Shown here: positions 4,481 to 36,978 of the stretch, piece by piece
How positions within the stretch are numbered: position 1 is the stretch's first letter
Layout: each line of letters begins with the position of its first letter
Origin: a phage
DNA: 64,000 nucleotides
Sequence record: OZ346189.1
Reading direction: 5' to 3' (one strand)
Position numbers and translations under genes: made by a program
The notes under the pieces: generated by a model
Seen by the model: the letters and a program-made list of their open reading frames with translations, nothing else
Databases searched by the model: none
Told to the model about the DNA's origin: nothing

Positions 4481-7400
4481 ATGAGTATGTGGAATTTTGA
4501 CTTTGAGGCCTCAGGTCTTCTGGACGAGGAAGATCTTTACTACCATTGTGGCCTGTTTAAAGAGTTGAATAAAAATAATTTTATGTTGTTTTTGCCTATC
4601 AATGATAGATCTCATTACAGTGAAGAGGAGGTTGAAAAAGCAAAACAATTTATGCTGGCAAAGCAAGATATCTATCCTAGCTGCTCTGTCCGTATTGCGG
4701 ATTTCAGCCAGCTTGAATGGTGGTTAACCGGGAACTCCGATTGGTCACCCACATCATTAAGTTGTCACAACTGTTTTAGTTATGACTTTATCTTGATGGA
4801 GAAGCTGTCTGGTATTCATTTTGATATGTTCCGTGATCCCAAGTGTATGGGGACAATCAATAATCATCAGGTGAACCTGTTCGACACTCTGCCAATGAGT
4901 CGTATACTATGGCCCGACAGACCGTTACCTAAAGGATGCCCTGATTCTGTATACAATCCTGTTACAAAACGTATGCAGCAGGTAGGTCCTCATGGCCTAA
5001 TGGCGTGGGGGTACGCTTTAGGAAACCAGAAGGTTAAAATTGATGACTGGAGAAATTTACCTCTGTGGAAGTATGTTGATCGTGTATTCGAGGACGTTAT
5101 CATCCAGGAGCTGCTCTGGAAAGAGCTGGTAGCGGAATCAAAAGGTGTATTCTACGGCAAATCTGACATGCAGAACTTTATGTACGATCCAGCCAAAGAG
5201 AAGCCGAAAGGGTTCAAGAAGATTACCTGGAAGAATGCATTACGCCGAGGCATGCTGCAGCACTTCCTGATGGAGCTGCAGGCCCGTCAGGGTGTATACT
5301 TCGACATAGATGGAGCTATTGCTTTACGTGACCGTTGCGATGCGTGGATGAAAGAAATCGCTGATCGTGTTGAACCACAACTACCTTTAAAAGAGCTGTC
5401 AATGTCTCAGCGGCCCAAGTTCCCTGAAAAGCCGTTTAACCAAGACGGGACAATCTCTAATAATGGTTGGAAATGGTTAAAAGATAAGCTTGGCTATCCT
5501 GTAGACATGAGTGCTTTAGAGTTCAAAGCCCCGCCTAAGCGAGCATTTACCTCTACAGGAGATGTCAGCAAGATGGGGATAAAATGGTGTGAAGAGATGG
5601 GCTGCAAAGACCCCGATAAGATGGCTGATTTCTTGAGAGGCTATATTAAGGGCACCTCCACACCACAACCCTTACCTAAAGAGCTGATGGATCAGGCAAT
5701 AAGTGATCTGCAGCAGAAGCGAATGCCTGACTGCAAGATACCTATGAAAATCAGCAATCAGGACGACATCAAGCGATACCTAATCAGTGCTGGTTGGCTC
5801 CCAACAATGTGGAGAACTAAAGATGTAACTAAAGACAGCAAGAAGAAAGCTTTACCTGATGCAGATGTTGATGCACGAGTATATGCATATATGGACGAGC
5901 TTTTGGAGTCAGAGTATTGTGACCTAATTATCAACTTCTGGAACAAAACTGATGCTAAGTTCCAGACAACCGTGCACAAGTTCCGAAGCTTTCCTAACTC
6001 CGAAAGGATTAAAAAGGAAGTATTCGGGAAAATACGTAGAAAAGCCAGGGCACTTATTACTTCTCCGCAACTGAAAGATACGTTTGGACACCTATGCCCA
6101 AATCTTGAAAAATTGAACGGAGAGATGGCTAAAGATATCGTCTTGTGGTTATCATTGCGAAACCGCAGATCGGTCCTTGATCCAATCAAGGAGGATAAGG
6201 TTGATACTGGTCTTCTTAATCACCCACGTTTGAAGATTGACCATAAGCTTCCTGCTAAAAGCTCTGGATTAACAAACACTTCCAGACAGAAACACAGTAT
6301 TTGTGCAAACATGCCTAAACCATCTCCTAAAGTGGTTATGGGTAAAGAGATGCGTAGTCTGTGGGGTGTTCCTCCGGGATACTTTGAGATCGGTATTGAC
6401 GGGTCCAACTTAGAGCAGCTTATCGGGGCTTGGGGTGCCTTTGAGTTCGACAACGGCCTGTATTATGATGTTGTAAGTAATGGCGATGCACACTGTTATT
6501 CAGGAGATACACAAATTCTCACGGAGAAAGGGTGGGTGAGGTTTGAAGATCTTGATCCGGGAACACAAGTGTTCCAGTACGATCACAACACCTCGTCAAT
6601 GAACCTTGTTACTCCATTAAATTACGTTAAGCGTAGTTATTGTGGGGATATGTATCATTTCCACAACAGTAGTGTGGATTTTATGGTTACAGATCAACAC
6701 AGGATGCTGACTGTGGATCACAGAAGCAATAAATTGTTTGAAGATTTGGCAAAAGACCTGAAAGCAGGTAAAGGGTCTAATTCAGGAAGAAGGTTTATCC
6801 ATGCGGCAGAGTTTTATGGGAATACAACCTTATCTCCTGCCCAGGTTAATTTGCTTATTGCTATTCACGATGATGGGCACTTGCATACAAATAAGGACGG
6901 CAGCATCGTGTGCAGGATTCAGGTCGGAAAGGGAAGAAAAGTTGCAACGCTTTTAGATACTTTTTCTGCTCTAAGCCTTAGTTATGTAGAGCAGAGCGGG
7001 AAAACCACAAAAGGGGGCTTACTGGCGAGAAGGTTCCAATTCCACGTTCCGTCCTGGGTATTTGAGTTTTTGGACAACAATAAGGATTTCACCTATAACC
7101 TGATGAACCTTGATAAAGAATCTAAAAACCTGTTTATAGCTTCTTTATCTAACTGGGACGGGTGGGTATCTTCCGAAGGTGGAAAGGTTGCTTACTACTC
7201 CCAGGCCGAGTGCAGGAAGAAATCTGTAGAGGTGGTGTCTGCGCTGGCTACTCAGTGTGGTTTACGGAATAATACGGTGGCGATTCACAAAAAAGGTCGT
7301 GCCGTGCAGCACAGAATCACAATTGGTAGCAAACAGAGAGCAGGGTTGCTGACACTATCTAAAGAGTCTGTCGAGGTGAGCGGTTCTTTGGTTTATTGCG

Positions 7401-7879
7401 TTACCGTCCCTTCTGGAGCAATCATTGTGAGAAGGAATGGTAAAGTGGCAGTGTGCGGTAACTGTAATAACGCCAAAGCTTACTCTTCTGTAGCAGGCAA
7501 GGAGATTTCCCGTAACGATGGTAAACCTATCACGTATGGGGTTATGTATGGGGCACAAAAAGATAAAGTTGCAGATATGCTGGACATCTCCCCAGAGTTG
7601 GGACAAAGGGTAATCGATGCACTCTGGGATGCCAACCCAGGTCTTAAGGGGCGCAAAGAGGATCTGGAGAAATTCTGGGAAGCAACAGGTAAGAAGTTTA
7701 TCTACTCTTTTGATGGTCATGCTATCTGGACCCGATCTAAACACTCTTTACTTAATGCATACCAACAAAATGGCGGTGCATCGTTGTGTGACTTAGTTGG
7801 AATACTCATGCACCACCAGATGGTGAAGCGTGGGTGGTACGATGAAGGTGTTCGTCGTATTATTTATTACCATAAATAA
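4481..7879 (+). CDS. DNA polymerase, family A (Pol I/T7 gp5-like), N-terminal and catalytic part; contains an intein; interrupted before C-terminus
   Basis: SD AAGGAGAA; motif A IDGSNLEQL, Pol I-like DAH segment, motif B SRNDGKPITYGVMYG, Q..G.A.D segment QQNGGASLCD and HDE-like WYDE near end; stop TAA 7877-7879. Confidence 0.85.
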   Translation: MSMWNFDFEASGLLDEEDLYYHCGLFKELNKNNFMLFLPINDRSHYSEEEVEKAKQFMLAKQDIYPSCSVRIADFSQLEWWLTGNSDWSPTSLSCHNCFSYDFILMEKLSGIHFDMFRDPKCMGTINNHQVNLFDTLPMSRILWPDRPLPKGCPDSVYNPVTKRMQQVGPHGLMAWGYALGNQKVKIDDWRNLPLWKYVDRVFEDVIIQELLWKELVAESKGVFYGKSDMQNFMYDPAKEKPKGFKKITWKNALRRGMLQHFLMELQARQGVYFDIDGAIALRDRCDAWMKEIADRVEPQLPLKELSMSQRPKFPEKPFNQDGTISNNGWKWLKDKLGYPVDMSALEFKAPPKRAFTSTGDVSKMGIKWCEEMGCKDPDKMADFLRGYIKGTSTPQPLPKELMDQAISDLQQKRMPDCKIPMKISNQDDIKRYLISAGWLPTMWRTKDVTKDSKKKALPDADVDARVYAYMDELLESEYCDLIINFWNKTDAKFQTTVHKFRSFPNSERIKKEVFGKIRRKARALITSPQLKDTFGHLCPNLEKLNGEMAKDIVLWLSLRNRRSVLDPIKEDKVDTGLLNHPRLKIDHKLPAKSSGLTNTSRQKHSICANMPKPSPKVVMGKEMRSLWGVPPGYFEIGIDGSNLEQLIGAWGAFEFDNGLYYDVVSNGDAHCYSGDTQILTEKGWVRFEDLDPGTQVFQYDHNTSSMNLVTPLNYVKRSYCGDMYHFHNSSVDFMVTDQHRMLTVDHRSNKLFEDLAKDLKAGKGSNSGRRFIHAAEFYGNTTLSPAQVNLLIAIHDDGHLHTNKDGSIVCRIQVGKGRKVATLLDTFSALSLSYVEQSGKTTKGGLLARRFQFHVPSWVFEFLDNNKDFTYNLMNLDKESKNLFIASLSNWDGWVSSEGGKVAYYSQAECRKKSVEVVSALATQCGLRNNTVAIHKKGRAVQHRITIGSKQRAGLLTLSKESVEVSGSLVYCVTVPSGAIIVRRNGKVAVCGNCNNAKAYSSVAGKEISRNDGKPITYGVMYGAQKDKVADMLDISPELGQRVIDALWDANPGLKGRKEDLEKFWEATGKKFIYSFDGHAIWTRSKHSLLNAYQQNGGASLCDLVGILMHHQMVKRGWYDEGVRRIIYYHK
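6494..7462 (+). mobile_element. intein with LAGLIDADG-type homing endonuclease domain inside DNA polymerase
   Basis: 323 in-frame codons between Pol motifs A and B; starts CYSGDTQIL (block A), TDQH (block B), LLIAIHDDGH and LFIASLSNWDGW (LAGLIDADG-like), ends ...LVYCVTV...VAVCGN followed by Cys +1. Confidence 0.7.
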
Positions 7880-8377
7880 CATTGTGGCTTCATAGAGTAA
7901 TCTATGTCGAATAACCTCTTTAACTGCGGGAAGCCTAAACCTTATGGCAAGGTAATCCGCAACGAAGCGCTCAAAAGAGCGAACGCTCAGAGGCCATTCC
8001 GAAAGGAAGTAGACCAGCAAGTGCGGTCGAAATGGGAGGATTCCTGTGGTTGCTTATCATAGGAATATGAGATGGTCCGATCCTACGTGAAAACGTATGG
8101 CTATGCACGTAATGGTGCGGGGTAGCTTAACGACCTACCTGAACTATTGGATGAGTACCAACTTCAAGTGCCTGACACACCGAAGTATAAGACTGTGTAC
8201 ACCTTCGACACAATTGAAGAACTGGAAGCATTTAAGGCAGAGCAGGAAGCCAAACTTCATGTGTTCGACGGTCATAAGTACAAAAAGGCACGCAAGGATG
8301 AGGACGGAAACGAAGTGGTTGACAGAGACGGAAACACGGTGTACGATCCTATCCTGAACGATGACGGAAAGCTTGAA
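7847..8377 (+). other. intervening sequence in DNA polymerase gene (candidate group I intron; boundaries approximate)
   Basis: In-frame stops at 7877, 7898 and 8060 separate ...GWYDE from the polymerase C-terminus encoded in the same frame from about 8378; no large ORF inside. Confidence 0.4.
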
Positions 8378-30246: not shown

Positions 30247-30642
30247 TTACTGAAACAGTGCGGATAAATTACCTTCTGGTGGGAACTTATCTGCCAAAAA
30301 CGGTGTTAGCACAGTAGCCTTCTGAAGATCTGGGGTCCACTCGTTGTTCAGAACATCCCAGTAGTACGCAATGTTGCTGTGTGGGTGCCGCATTACGAAC
30401 TTTTTCCCTTCGTAGTCATCTGAAACCTCTACAGAAGAAATAACAACAGAATCTTCAAGGGTTTCTTCATAGAAAGATCCACCTTCAAATTTCCAACGAG
30501 ATGCAAGAGCTCCTGCCTTGAACGCTGCAGATAACGGACTGTCTGCAAGAACATACATTTCTTGCACTCTGTCGCTGCGATCTTTGCTTCTTACGTTGTA
30601 TACAGTATCTGAGCTATACTCAACACGGTATAGGCTTACCAT
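30247..30642 (-). CDS. hypothetical protein (paralog of 32449-32847)
   Basis: 131 aa; shared segments ..A.KAG.A.RW..EG... and ..HP.S...YW.....WTP. Confidence 0.55.
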   Translation of the reverse strand: MVSLYRVEYSSDTVYNVRSKDRSDRVQEMYVLADSPLSAAFKAGALASRWKFEGGSFYEETLEDSVVISSVEVSDDYEGKKFVMRHPHSNIAYYWDVLNNEWTPDLQKATVLTPFLADKFPPEGNLSALFQ

Positions 30643-30978: not shown

Positions 30979-31242
30979 TCACCCAACAACCATAGCTTCA
31001 AAAGGGGTCATGAACGAATAAACGGCATCATCATCTGCTTCAGGGAATGCTCCCAAAGACTTCATGTCTGAGCCCTTGACAAATACAAGGTTTTGATCAA
31101 AAGCTTCTTGAGGATCAATCCGATACATATTTCGTAGAATATCGCCTACCTCCTCATCAAGAGGTGAGTATGCTGTGCACGTTTTTCCGATCAAGCTTTG
31201 AGAATCAGGGTATCCACCTGAAGTTTTAAAATAAACAATCAT
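30979..31242 (-). CDS. hypothetical protein
   Basis: 87 aa. Confidence 0.45.
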   Translation of the reverse strand: MIVYFKTSGGYPDSQSLIGKTCTAYSPLDEEVGDILRNMYRIDPQEAFDQNLVFVKGSDMKSLGAFPEADDDAVYSFMTPFEAMVVG

Positions 31243-31333
31243 ATAGTATCACCTCTGGTAAGAGATTGGGATTCCTTTCCCACAAATAATTACAAACCTT
31301 CCTTATCGAGGAAGTATGCTAATCCAAGCAGGA

Positions 31334-31603
31334 TTATTCCTCTACAATCTCATACACATCCGGAGTTACAATCAACTCTTCTCCGTTACCCGGTGCAACA
31401 AACACCACCATGCCTTCAGGTGTGTGCTTTTTAGCCATCTCGATAACATCTTCTCGCAGAGCTGGCTCCATCAGATCAAAACCTTCACCCAGGGCATCAC
31501 GAACCACCTTCATATAGTCAACTGGTTGTGCTTCGACAATCATACCTTCAACCAGTCCACAGTTTTTGTCTGCCAGCTCAGTTTTGAATAATTTAATTTT
31601 CAT
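31334..31603 (-). CDS. small acidic protein, paralog family member
   Basis: 89 aa; MKIKLFKTEL...DVYEIVEE. Confidence 0.5.
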   Translation of the reverse strand: MKIKLFKTELADKNCGLVEGMIVEAQPVDYMKVVRDALGEGFDLMEPALREDVIEMAKKHTPEGMVVFVAPGNGEELIVTPDVYEIVEE

Positions 31604-31629
31604 TTAGAGGTCTCCTCAATTATTTGATA

Positions 31630-31731
31630 TTAATAGCCGTAACCTAACACATTAACTACAACTGCGATTGCAAACATAATTTCAAAGCATGCAATCTCTA
31701 CATTTGGAACTAATTTCTTGATCACACCCAT
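31630..31731 (-). CDS. micro-ORF, hydrophobic (33 aa)
   Basis: MGVIKKLVPNVEIACFEIMFAIAVVVNVLGYGY; GAGGTG SD 7 nt upstream. Confidence 0.25.
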   Translation of the reverse strand: MGVIKKLVPNVEIACFEIMFAIAVVVNVLGYGY

Positions 31732-31740
31732 TGTAGCACC

Positions 31741-32058
31741 TCATTCTCTAAAGTCAATCTTTACTTTGCCTTTCCCCTTACCTTTCTTTCCACCGCATTT
31801 AGCCAGTTGACGTGCTGCAACATCTACCATACGGTCAGTTGCCTCGTAAGCATCACTGCCTTTAGCTTTGGCAATAACTTCTTTTCCAGAATTGTCAAAA
31901 ATGAACGCCATAACTTCCTGGTGATCATTTTCAACTTTTACACTCACACGTGCATAGTTGGCAGAGGGATGCAAACGCTCCAGCTTAGACATTTTGTGGG
32001 AAATGAAAGACACCATACCTTCAGTGATTTCTACGTTGCCAGTGATTTCAATTTGCAT
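31741..32058 (-). CDS. hpf: ribosome hibernation promoting factor / RaiA family protein
   Basis: 105 aa; MQIEITGNVEITEGMVSFISHKMSKLERL...ARVSVKVE...AKAKGSDAYEATDRMVDVAARQLAK parallels bacterial HPF/YfiA (MQLNITG..VEIT.AL...KL......V.LKVEK......A.G.D.Y.AID...DKL.RQL) over its full length. Confidence 0.7.
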   Translation of the reverse strand: MQIEITGNVEITEGMVSFISHKMSKLERLHPSANYARVSVKVENDHQEVMAFIFDNSGKEVIAKAKGSDAYEATDRMVDVAARQLAKCGGKKGKGKGKVKIDFRE

Positions 32059-32140
32059 AACGTGTTCCTTTTAAAGAAGAGGGAACCAAACCCTCTTTGA
32101 AAACAATGATACTAAATCTGAAGCGTTGTGTCAACAGTTT

Positions 32141-32431
32141 TTACAGATTGTTGTCGATAGTTTTTAAAATATCCACAGCAAGATCTGCCATTTTTCGAAC
32201 ATACTCTGCAAACTCAACAGGATCCTTGATCAAAGAATTCACAGGGTCGTACCCTAGAGCGTTCAAAATGGCTGCAGCATCTACAACCTTCTCATCATTT
32301 GCGAAGATCTCTCCATCAAACTTGTAGGTCCATTTTGAGTCAATCTTGGCAGGGAATGATTGGTCAACGCTTGTTACACCATCCTTTTTAAACGCTCCGG
32401 TGTTATCAGTGTCTAGAACTAAATCCATCAT
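32141..32431 (-). CDS. hypothetical protein
   Basis: 96 aa; acidic. Confidence 0.45.
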   Translation of the reverse strand: MMDLVLDTDNTGAFKKDGVTSVDQSFPAKIDSKWTYKFDGEIFANDEKVVDAAAILNALGYDPVNSLIKDPVEFAEYVRKMADLAVDILKTIDNNL

Positions 32432-32448
32432 GTTAGTACCTCACCGTT

Positions 32449-32847
32449 TCAGTTTAGCTTTTCTTCAACAACCCCATAGCTCGGGACAGAGTCAAGAGCT
32501 TTCTGGTTTAAAAGTGGTGTAGCAGAATCTGCAAACGGTGTCCAAGTTTTTGTTCTGGCATTCCAGTAATGCTTCACTCTGGAATCTGGATGCACTATAA
32601 CAAAAACTTTTTCACTTGTCAACACATTAATTTCTTCTACACCCTTGCTGATAATTTCTCCGTCATAGCCACCAGTCTGGTATCCTTCGTACCAGGTTCT
32701 TGCATATGCATAGCCAGCCTGCCAGCATGCAGCCTCCTCCGAGGTGGAGACTACGTAGAAGTCTTTCTCAAATTCTGGGATACGCCCTTGCTTTACGCTC
32801 CAAGCTCCGCGAATTTTCATTGTAACTTTGAACAGTTTATTTTTCAC
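32449..32847 (-). CDS. hypothetical protein (paralog of 30247-30642)
   Basis: 132 aa. Confidence 0.55.
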   Translation of the reverse strand: MKNKLFKVTMKIRGAWSVKQGRIPEFEKDFYVVSTSEEAACWQAGYAYARTWYEGYQTGGYDGEIISKGVEEINVLTSEKVFVIVHPDSRVKHYWNARTKTWTPFADSATPLLNQKALDSVPSYGVVEEKLN

Positions 32848-32859
32848 AACGGTTACCCA

Positions 32860-33114
32860 TCACAGCTCTACAATCTCTGCATCTGACCCTGCCCCAAAGG
32901 CATAATAGGATTCTTCCCCGAAATAATATTCCGGTGCACCAGCAGCGATCAGGTCTGATCCCAAGATAAACACCACGTTGTGGCCTACATAACTGTGATG
33001 TTGCCGCACAGGATCATCCCACGGCAACCCTTCAAAGTATACCGCAGGAACGACCTTTCCCTTCAGGAAGGATTGTCCCAAGTAGACGTTAGAATCAAGA
33101 ATTTTAACCTTCAT
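32860..33114 (-). CDS. small acidic protein, paralog family member
   Basis: 84 aa; MKVKILDSNVYLGQ...DLIAAGA...DAEIVEL. Confidence 0.5.
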   Translation of the reverse strand: MKVKILDSNVYLGQSFLKGKVVPAVYFEGLPWDDPVRQHHSYVGHNVVFILGSDLIAAGAPEYYFGEESYYAFGAGSDAEIVEL

Positions 33115-33331
33115 TCTCGTCCTCCACTATCTCTACATCCTCACCAAGGGCAAAGTTGTAGGTCCACTGGCTGTCAAAGCAGTCCTGAGATGCACCAGCG
33201 GAAATAAGATCTGCACCTTTTATTTTTAAAAGGTCAGGATAATCTTCGTTAGGGATAGCGGTAAACACTTTCCCCACTAAGGGCTCCTGACCAATATAGA
33301 AGCTTGAATCTAAAACTTTAACTTTCATCAA
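33104..33331 (-). CDS. small acidic protein, paralog family member
   Basis: 75 aa; MMKVKVLDSSFYIGQ...DLISAGA...DVEIVEDENEG. Confidence 0.5.
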   Translation of the reverse strand: MMKVKVLDSSFYIGQEPLVGKVFTAIPNEDYPDLLKIKGADLISAGASQDCFDSQWTYNFALGEDVEIVEDENEG

Positions 33332-36214: not shown

Positions 36215-36748
36215 CTACAAATGGTCGCTGAGGGTGTCAAGAAAATTATCCCGTTCTTTCTCAGAGTTTTCATGTGTGTAGCTGAAAAACATATCGAGAA
36301 TAACCTTATTGATATATTCCAGCTCCTCTGTGTTCAGATGCTTAGCAGGATCTACAATGACATCCCAAATATCATACAGACCACACTCATGATACCCATA
36401 ACGCCACTCAATTGTCAAGCTGAGCGGCAAATCTTTACCGTCACAAACAACCTTCCATCTACATATGTTGGTATCTGGTCGTACCTGTGCACGGTACACC
36501 TGTACAAAATCCAATTTGAATTTGAGGTACTCGTCATACAATTTAAGCACAAAGCTCTCGATTTGTGGAGACACTTTTGCAGCAAACTGTGCGTATTTGT
36601 ACTTGCACTGGATGATCTTTCTGCGTTTTGCAGTTAAATTTTTTGCCGCCAGTTGTTCTTCAGTGTATCTCCACCTACGATCAACAAACGCAACAGGGTC
36701 TTTGTCCCCATAGAGGTCTTCCCAGTTAATCAGAAGCATACCTGTCAC
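36215..36748 (-). CDS. hypothetical protein
   Basis: 177 aa. Confidence 0.5.
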   Translation of the reverse strand: MTGMLLINWEDLYGDKDPVAFVDRRWRYTEEQLAAKNLTAKRRKIIQCKYKYAQFAAKVSPQIESFVLKLYDEYLKFKLDFVQVYRAQVRPDTNICRWKVVCDGKDLPLSLTIEWRYGYHECGLYDIWDVIVDPAKHLNTEELEYINKVILDMFFSYTHENSEKERDNFLDTLSDHL

Positions 36749-36978
36749 TCCTCCACAACTTCAAGGCCTTTACCGCCTCGCTCTGGCAGATTACTTAAAG
36801 ATAGGTAATACATATAATCAGGAGAGATCCTGCCAGACTCTGCACCTGCAGCTAGTAAATCCTTCCCTTTAACCAGGACAACATTCTCGTTTGCAGATAG
36901 CCGTTTTGCTTCCACAATTTTACCAACACAGTCAACCAAGGAAGGGTACCCTAAATCTGTAAGAAATTTAACTTTCAT
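36745..36978 (-). CDS. small acidic protein, paralog family member
   Basis: 77 aa; MKVKFLTDLGY...DLLAAGA...GLEVVEE. Confidence 0.5.
   Translation of the reverse strand: MKVKFLTDLGYPSLVDCVGKIVEAKRLSANENVVLVKGKDLLAAGAESGRISPDYMYYLSLSNLPERGGKGLEVVEE

Follow-up and report, generated by a model that had tools for sequence, protein, structure and literature searches.

An HPF/YfiA-family ribosome hibernation factor homolog kept under strong purifying selection in Vequintavirus coliphages

The gene described here encodes a phage member of the HPF/YfiA family of ribosome hibernation factors, and it is under strong purifying selection. It lies at 31741..32058 on the minus strand of a 64,000-nucleotide stretch of phage DNA (sequence record OZ346189.1), referred to below as the window, and codes for 105 amino acids plus a stop codon. 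What the protein does during infection can be proposed only tentatively. The favored reading, which falls somewhat short of being probable outright, is that of a YfiA-like, salt-labile occupant of the HPF site on vacant host ribosomes early in infection, which would keep idle ribosomes intact and monomeric for the phage and may exclude RMF.

The identity of the gene is not new, since the HPF gene of the rV5-like coliphages (Vequintavirus) has been annotated and published before; it is known as ORF144/gp139 in phage rV5 and as bas56_0150 in Escherichia phage AlexBoehm. What is added here is an audit of the residues that contact the ribosome, the recognition of the C-terminal tail as phage specific, estimates of selection and age, and an ortholog in a sister lineage. 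Another addition concerns the negative binding assay in the literature, which was run under conditions that can strip such factors from ribosomes. These additions refine the existing question on phage HPF and open no new one.

A known gene of rV5-like phages

The 2 kb around the gene is 100% identical to phage AlexBoehm (bas56_; Vequintavirinae, Vequintavirus), and this stretch is found in 119 phage records at a nucleotide identity of at least 80%, with 118 of them at 90% or above. Over the first 25 kb of the window, the best match is phage MaxTheCat at 97.3%. Because the closest relative around the gene is an exact match and that over the first 25 kb is not, the window is a mosaic member of Vequintavirus and not any single deposited genome. 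A tblastn search with the phage protein found 118 phage records, 117 of which have at least 95% amino-acid identity; the AlexBoehm protein, annotated as “ribosome hibernation factor,” is 100% identical to that of the window. The rV5 counterpart (YP_002003641, ABI79209) is the same gene, found at the same position behind the same promoter, P144, and its product has 99% of its amino acids in common with that of the window. It differs at the strain level only; for example, R104 of the window protein is G104 in rV5.

More than 100 GenBank records label the gene, and the names used include “ribosome hibernation factor,” “hpf,” “ribosome-associated translation inhibitor RaiA,” and “sigma 54 modulation factor.” In some records, the last of these labels is also given to a nearby CDS of 89 amino acids at 31334..31603. 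That CDS has no Pfam match, and the label looks like an annotation slip rather than a sign of a second HPF.

The rV5 protein (ABI79209, 105 amino acids) was listed among virus-encoded ribosomal proteins by Mizuno et al. 2019 (PMC6375957), and their tree places it among the gammaproteobacterial HPFs. In the same study, the rV5 HPF was expressed from pBAD24 in Escherichia coli. Mass spectrometry found its peptides in the crude extract and none in the purified 70S and 100S ribosomes, and the sedimentation profiles showed no discernible change in 100S abundance upon expression (PMC6375957). The cells had been harvested at an OD600 of 1, and the ribosomes had been pelleted through a sucrose cushion containing 500 mM NH4Cl. 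The authors termed the outcome inconclusive and gave growth phase, a real loss of binding, or salt washing as possible reasons for the negative result (PMC6375957). The hpf gene was also noted by Mathieu et al. 2020 (PMC6969025) in their own rV5-like isolates. A literature search found no later functional work on phage-encoded HPF beyond these two papers, and it returned neither an rV5 transcriptome nor a paper joining rV5 to “modulation protein.”

Family membership and predicted fold

The minus-strand reading frame at 31741..32058 runs exactly from ATG to stop, and its translation is MQIEITGNVEITEGMVSFISHKMSKLERLHPSANYARVSVKVENDHQEVMAFIFDNSGKEVIAKAKGSDAYEATDRMVDVAARQLAKCGGKKGKGKGKVKIDFRE. Reading the plus strand over the same coordinates gives an unrelated peptide. 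The original prediction had called the product a phage-encoded HPF/RaiA homolog and had quoted peptide strings, all of which are found in the minus-strand translation, and it had named profile and structure searches among the ways to check the claim. Both searches bear it out. In Pfam, PF02482 (Ribosomal_S30AE) matches residues 3–88 at 48.3 bits against a gathering cutoff of 23.7, with an E value of 1.8e-12, where the absence of a significant S30AE hit would have spoken against homology. In NCBIfam, TIGR00741 (HPF/YfiA) scores 45.9 bits against a cutoff of 40.9, so the family assignment holds above the curated cutoffs in both collections.

Within the family, the top NCBIfam model is NF007780, the equivalog model for E. 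coli HPF, at 55.8 bits, which is far under its cutoff of 125. The equivalog model for RaiA, NF007654, gives only 17.6 bits against a cutoff of 158. A similar preference is seen among PDB sequences: the best matches are to E. coli HPF (2rql/4v8h/6h4n; E about 5e-12, residues 1–89), and the RaiA/protein Y chains reach E values of 0.35–0.77 only. Because of these two differences, the phage protein is classed by sequence as a member of the HPF/YfiA family that is HPF type rather than RaiA type and has diverged from both. It has no long-HPF C-terminal dimerization domain, being 105 amino acids long (long HPFs have about 180–190), with no second Pfam domain and a disordered C-terminus.

The fold was predicted with AlphaFold2 from an alignment of 22 sequences. 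The model has a mean pLDDT of 82.8 and a pTM of 0.71, with a pLDDT of 87–94 across residues 1–80 and below 50 for residues 91–105. Its elements (E2–7, H13–29, E33–43, E46–55, E60–67, and H70–93) follow each other in the order beta-alpha-beta-beta-beta-alpha, and this fold, the one that had been expected, superposes on E. coli HPF with a TM score of 0.90. Together with the Foldseek matches, the model defines a core S30AE (HPF/YfiA) domain of residues 1–88, encoded at 31795..32058 on the minus strand.

The top 36 Foldseek matches in the PDB consist entirely of HPF, RaiA, protein Y, and related ribosome factors with the S30AE fold (such as pY, MPY, and RafH). Ranked first are the E. coli HPF of a hibernating 100S ribosome (6h4n_x; TM score by target 0.90, rmsd 1.1 Å, 41% identity) and Vibrio cholerae HPF (4hei; TM score by target 0.93, rmsd 1.0 Å, 35% identity). 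Over residues 1–87, the likeness to the short HPF of E. coli (YhbH; 2rql, 6h4n, 4v8h) amounts to 41–44% identity at the TM score and rmsd given for 6h4n_x. E. coli YfiA/RaiA (protein Y) has the same fold and also carries a C-terminal extension past the short-HPF length, and by homology the same binding site would be expected for the phage protein. YfiA differs in its much weaker sequence similarity to the phage protein and in the unrelated sequence of its tail.

Selection, distribution, and age of the capture

Selection was estimated by the Nei-Gojobori method. The codon alignment contained the window copy, those of two IMG/VR contigs, and those of phages V18, A6-1, JES2013, and Murica. For codons 1–88, dN/dS is 0.02–0.11 in every comparison with measurable divergence, while dS reaches 0.8. 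Every one of the 118 phage records covering the region also has the gene. A single record has the flanks and lacks the gene, but it is a 3.2-kb fragment and does not represent a natural deletion of HPF.

An ortholog was found in the same gene order in uncultivated contigs of about 125–137 kb that form a sister lineage to Vequintavirus. This protein, P0004, has 103 amino acids, passes PF02482 at 50.6 bits, and is 64% identical to the window protein overall and 70% identical over the core, which makes it better conserved than its immediate neighbors (40–60%). Its gene is preceded by a TTGACA promoter of its own, and its synonymous differences from the Vequintavirus copies are saturated. The sequence diversity was drawn from an exhaustive HMMER search and from GenBank phage records, the IMG/VR scan having returned only two loci and a word-indexed protein search only five proteins. 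The second-best match of the exhaustive HMMER search, P0006, proved spurious: it is a PPC-repeat protein of 1160 amino acids with eight matched stretches.

A tblastn search with E. coli HPF matched 130 of 50,697 records, and 118 of these are Vequintavirus phages. No phage of the other Vequintavirinae genera is among the 130, although the replication module of the window does find matches among phages of those genera, whose hosts include Klebsiella, Salmonella, Pectobacterium, and Serratia. The gene was thus gained before Vequintavirus split from its sister lineage, and strong constraint has maintained it ever since.

Several features argue against a recent capture of the gene from a bacterium. 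Its product is only 42–44% identical to E. coli HPF, its GC content of 41.8% equals that of the surrounding phage DNA, and the synonymous differences from the sister lineage are saturated, so the capture is an old one. The “relatively recent” transfer proposed earlier (Mizuno et al. 2019, PMC6375957) is not supported by these three values.

Promoter and genomic setting

Directly upstream of the gene, at 32106..32134 on the minus strand, is a sigma-70-type promoter, TTGACA-17 nt-TATCAT, with 11 of 12 consensus matches. It sits between the stop codon of the upstream gene (32141) and the ATG of the HPF gene. In all eight Vequintavirus copies compared, the –35 hexamer, the AAACTG upstream of it, and the spacing are invariant, and the –10 element is either TATCAT or TATTAT. 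The divergent sister lineage (L004) has TTGACA-17-AATTAT in the same place, with flanks that differ. The equivalent promoter is annotated in the rV5 record (NC_011041) as “Sigma70-type promoter; P144.” Because the gene has a dedicated and conserved sigma-70 promoter, the sequence suggests that it is transcribed early by the unmodified host RNA polymerase.

A Shine-Dalgarno sequence, AAGGA, is read at 32066..32070 on the minus strand, 7 nt before the ATG, and a ribosome binding site is annotated at the equivalent place in the record of phage Murica. Between promoter and Shine-Dalgarno, following the predicted transcription start, the minus strand at 32077..32097 could form a hairpin with a 7-bp stem (AAGAGGG-loop-CCCTCTT). 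Its minimum free energy is –9.9 kcal/mol, with a z-score of only –1.0 against shuffled sequences. In the V18/Murica-type and L002 copies, the stem does not pair perfectly, and L004 has no such hairpin. Since its stability is not above that of the shuffled controls and it is poorly kept in these copies, this weak candidate is not claimed as a regulatory element.

The original prediction had placed the gene in an array of small genes, and the setting is as described: in AlexBoehm, the same-strand run of small genes around the HPF gene comprises 43 CDS in 12.3 kb. The functions of these genes are unassigned, and none of the 10 neighbors of the HPF gene matched Pfam.

Residues that contact the ribosome

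The contacts made by gammaproteobacterial HPF and YfiA in a cryo-EM study (bioRxiv 10.1101/2025.10.07.680626) were mapped onto the phage protein and 18 bacterial relatives taken from the exhaustive HMMER search. The conserved basic residues among them that touch 16S rRNA lie in helix alpha2 (K80, R83, K87, K89, and K91) and in helix alpha1 (K26). Several of the contact residues are kept. E. coli K26, which binds phosphates near m3U1498, is K25 in the phage protein and also lysine in the sister lineage. Q29, which contacts the same phosphates, is replaced by arginine in both lineages (R28 in the window protein), and arginine is the commonest residue at this position among the 18 relatives. R83, which contacts m4C1402, and K87, which contacts 16S rRNA, are present in both lineages. 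Two further residues that the window protein has in common with E. coli HPF are not retained by the sister lineage, namely E60, a contact of uS9 (valine in the sister lineage), and K91, a contact of 16S rRNA (serine).

The remaining contacts differ from E. coli in both lineages. T53 and H62, which both contact m2G966, are phenylalanine and isoleucine in the window protein and arginine and methionine in the sister lineage. H55, which contacts the C-terminus of uS9, is phenylalanine in both. Of the 16S rRNA contacts, K80 is valine in the window protein and threonine in the sister lineage, and K89 is glycine and serine, respectively. Some of these substitutions are also seen in bacteria, with V or T at position 80 in 3 of the 18 relatives and F at position 55 in 4. 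Where helix alpha2 begins, both phage lineages have DAYEATD in place of the near-universal motif DMYAAID. Overall, the phage protein has the consensus residue in 18 of the 26 columns with at least 70% conservation among the bacterial relatives. The two phage lineages agree at only 5 of 12 mapped contact positions, a smaller share than their overall identity of 64%.

These residues can be read as a central anchor (R83, K87, and K26) that stays constrained and an interface periphery that has relaxed. Such a pattern predicts binding at the canonical site with a lower affinity, and binding of this kind would be compatible with loss of the protein during a wash in 0.5 M salt.

The C-terminal tail

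Residues 89–105 (GGKKGKGKGKVKIDFRE), encoded together with the stop codon at 31741..31794 on the minus strand, form a Lys/Gly-rich tail with a net charge of +5 that lies outside the HPF alignment. The C-terminus of E. coli HPF is short and helical (KHKDKLKQH), and the phage protein has KCGGKKGKGKGKVKIDFRE there, a longer, disordered Gly/Lys stretch. The tail raises the pI to 9.0, compared to 6.5 for E. coli HPF. The product had been said to match HPF along its whole length, including a basic C-terminal tail. The match holds for residues 1 to about 89–91 and fails for the last 15–17, which have no HPF counterpart; a basic tail is indeed present, but it is a phage-specific extension and not the tail of HPF.

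Across Vequintavirus, the tail hardly varies. The sister lineage has another basic sequence in its place (YSKSKGIDKRTAKWDY), so it is not conserved between the two lineages. In phage Murica (L010), a 1-nt deletion in a run of A cuts the protein to 99 amino acids and truncates the tail, and in APECc02 the match covers residues 1–88 only.

The disordered tail departs from helix alpha2 just where the tail of YfiA heads toward the RMF site. The longer C-terminal tail of YfiA has been reported to run to this site, which is the proposed reason why YfiA-bound ribosomes are without RMF and undimerized. By position alone, the phage tail could exclude RMF as the YfiA tail does, and this analogy is offered as a lead.

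A proposed role on idle host ribosomes

In the favored reading, an HPF gene captured from a bacterium long ago has been retained as a functional phage gene. The host RNA polymerase would most likely transcribe it early through its own sigma-70 promoter, and the protein, by homology, would most likely bind the HPF/YfiA site, that is, the tRNA/mRNA channel of vacant host 30S and 70S particles. Because about half of the secondary contacts are lost, binding would probably be weaker than that of the host factor and salt labile. Idle host ribosomes would be held as intact, quickly reusable 70S monomers, an action like that of YfiA rather than HPF, and the RMF-driven formation of 100S particles may be excluded. 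Translation capacity would thereby be saved for the phage once host ribosome synthesis stops. The identity of the gene, the fold, the selection, and the promoter consensus with its conservation are shown by the data; ribosome binding, expression timing, what the tail does, and which way the effect goes are inferred.

Washing in high salt is routinely used to remove RMF, HPF, and YfiA from ribosomes, and RMF is probably low at an OD600 of 1. Since the 500 mM NH4Cl used when the rV5 protein was assayed can strip hibernation factors, the binding result of that assay is treated here as uninformative rather than negative. Its outcome (protein in the lysate, none on ribosomes washed in 0.5 M NH4Cl, and 100S particles unchanged) fits weak, nondimerizing binding. 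The favored reading also draws on the retained contacts (K25, equivalent to K26; R28, equivalent to Q29; E60; R83; K87; and K91), as well as on purifying selection, presence in every phage record with the region, the syntenic ortholog, and the disordered tail with its charge of +5. A number of points count against it. The sole test of ribosome binding was negative (Mizuno et al. 2019), T53, H55, K80, and K89 are changed in both phage lineages along with DMYAAID, and with 5 of 12 contact positions shared, the interface looks partly relaxed. The tail, which differs between lineages, is cut short in Murica and goes unmatched in APECc02. The score of 55.8 bits lies well below the HPF equivalog cutoff of 125, and the case for early expression comes from the promoter consensus.

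One alternative has the S30AE fold repurposed, with binding in the decoding channel lost and another RNA or protein of the host or the phage as the target. The expressed protein gave no peptides in the ribosome fractions (Mizuno et al. 2019), four conserved contact positions are lost, and DMYAAID has become DAYEATD, with the same changes fixed in both lineages. The new polycationic tail with its pI of 9.0 and the low identity to host HPF (only 42–44%) point the same way. Set against this, R83 (to m4C1402), K87, and K26, the residues most consistently tied to rRNA, are kept in both lineages; valine or threonine at position 80 and phenylalanine at position 55 occur in bacterial members, too; the wash in 0.5 M NH4Cl could have stripped a bound factor, a salt-driven dissociation that the authors of the assay themselves raise; and no search pointed to an alternative target. 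A change of target is thus unlikely, though it is to be taken seriously. Slightly lower in standing, and likewise unlikely, is a role as an anti-hibernation decoy: a deliberately weak and fast-exchanging occupant of the HPF/YfiA site with a polycationic, RMF-blocking tail, which would stop a host under stress from locking its ribosomes into 100S particles as a final response to infection and leave them free at once for phage mRNAs. If true, this would be a counter-defense aimed at ribosome hibernation, and the earlier suggestion of interference with host defense survives only as a version of it.

The protein might instead be a canonical HPF that joins host RMF to build inactive 100S dimers, shutting down host translation or pacing the infection. 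Short HPFs, including the E. coli HPF of the 100S ribosome, are its nearest relatives in both sequence and structure; it is near them in length and lacks the C-terminal domain of long HPFs. The missing rise in 100S particles is not decisive here, given the harvest at an OD600 of 1, when RMF would probably have been low. Nonetheless, expression in E. coli left the 100S particles unchanged, and the protein was absent from purified 70S and 100S ribosomes (Mizuno et al. 2019). Its 17-residue extension is unlike the short-HPF C-terminus and is placed where the tail of YfiA, associated with the absence of RMF, heads. The protein also scores below the HPF equivalog cutoff, and an early block of vacant ribosomes would presumably hurt phage translation as well. 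This makes canonical HPF action rather improbable. A nonfunctional passenger, meaning a host gene that was captured and is now neutral or in decay, might be suspected from the frameshifted tail in Murica and the APECc02 match that is limited to residues 1–88. However, the dN/dS of 0.02–0.11 amid many synonymous changes effectively refutes it. The gene also persists in every one of the 118 records as well as in a sister lineage with saturated synonymous differences, its dedicated promoter is conserved, and the protein was detected when expressed (Mizuno et al. 2019), so a passenger is very improbable indeed. What probability remains falls to an explanation that was not considered.

Significance and related phage proteins

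Ribosome hibernation is a major bacterial stress response, and a phage copy of one of its factors hints at manipulation of the pool of idle ribosomes. In this case, strong selection maintains the gene throughout an entire genus of well-studied coliphages, of which some are candidates for therapy. Its importance would rise substantially only with experimental proof of an anti-hibernation or ribosome-protection role.

HPF-like proteins with the S30AE fold are also found in jumbo phages, which are, like the rV5 group, large virulent phages of Gammaproteobacteria. Examples are the proteins of Cronobacter phage GAP32 (K4F6Q6), Escherichia phage PBECO4 (L7TII8), and Xanthomonas phage XaC1. In structural alignment, the GAP32 and PBECO4 proteins are about 21–22% identical to the window protein. 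Because Mizuno et al. 2019 (PMC6375957) placed the GAP32 protein in another part of their HPF tree, the jumbo-phage genes are probably independent captures.

Sequence variation in the HPF gene

Within Vequintavirus, the gene for the homolog of the ribosome hibernation factor HPF (31741..32058, minus strand) differs between records at both ends of its product. Phages V18, A6-1, and Murica read GNNVEIT at codon 8, as does the HPF of E. coli, whereas the window reads GNVEIT. The two forms thus differ by an indel of a single codon, a polymorphism that falls within the beta1-alpha1 loop of the protein. In some species, the corresponding loop of HPF-family proteins touches 16S rRNA near A964 (bioRxiv 10.1101/2025.10.07.680626).

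At the other end, the Murica copy has lost one nucleotide from an A-run (GGGGAAAGGC becomes GGGGAAGGC, at the equivalent of window position ~31760..31775), which puts the Lys/Gly tail out of frame and leaves a protein of 99 aa. The match of APECc02 to the window's protein is likewise confined to residues 1-88. A shortened tail of this kind is either a genuine truncation or a homopolymer sequencing error.

Gene neighborhood and sister lineage

Downstream of the HPF gene, an ORF for a hydrophobic 33-aa product, MGVIKKLVPNVEIACFEIMFAIAVVVNVLGYGY (31630..31731, minus strand), starts 9 nt past the HPF stop codon, with which its Shine-Dalgarno sequence, GAGGTG, overlaps. This ORF is annotated in Vequintavirus records. 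Several of the small genes in the vicinity are related to one another. A pair flanking the HPF gene (30247..30642 and 32449..32847, both on the minus strand) shares 28% identity (E 4e-9), and a set of three nearby (32860..33114, 33104..33331, and 36745..36978, all on the minus strand) is related at 41% (E 4e-14) and 30% (E 1e-5). The presence of these paralogs indicates that the early-gene array has been expanded in part by local duplication.

An uncultivated sister lineage of Vequintavirus (L004-L006) comes from the Logan assemblies ERR6997038, ERR4623478, and SRR25571739, in contigs of up to ~137 kb, and has no representative in the GenBank phage collection searched. Over ~10 kb, the lineage is collinear with the window, and individual genes are 40-87% identical at the amino-acid level. 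The lineage carries an HPF ortholog of 64% identity, without the hairpin in the 5' UTR and without the 33-aa ORF, which has no counterpart at the syntenic site in L004.

Labels in public records

The HPF region is a source of erroneous labels. In the bov and NWU phages, the HPF gene is mis-annotated as "ATP-dependent protease La type I," and in the A6-1 record the label "sigma 54 modulation factor" has been placed on the adjoining 89-aa CDS (31334..31603), which has no Pfam match; these are annotation errors. A second "sigma 54 modulation factor" label within the 2-kb region in APECc02, HMD-6, JLBYU08, and the MN8506xx series is probably on this same CDS. Host names may be affected as well. 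Eighteen GenBank records of the MG0656xx series bear the name "Campylobacter phage" and give Campylobacter jejuni as host. These records match window positions 31000..33000, over which they are ~95-98% identical to rV5-like phages of E. coli, and 22 "Campylobacter phage" records match the first 25 kb of the window. The MG0656xx deposits look like cases of mislabelling or contamination.

Extended -35 motif and group I intron

The extended -35 motif CTGTTGACA occurs five times in the window (plus strand: 4333, 13381, and 62656; minus strand: 32129 and 63351) against 0.92 copies expected, a count reached in 0 of 100 shuffles. The motif is a possible signature of one group of early promoters, in which an upstream element would be shared with the HPF promoter.

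In Rfam, window positions 7864..8099 (plus strand) matched the group I catalytic intron (RF00028), as a complete copy, at 64.7 bits (gathering score 50; E 4e-14). The intron overlaps the 3' end of a 1132-aa ORF at 4481..7879, and together they probably represent a DNA polymerase gene split by the intron, since the polymerase CDS of Escherichia phage AlexBoehm is annotated as a two-piece join.
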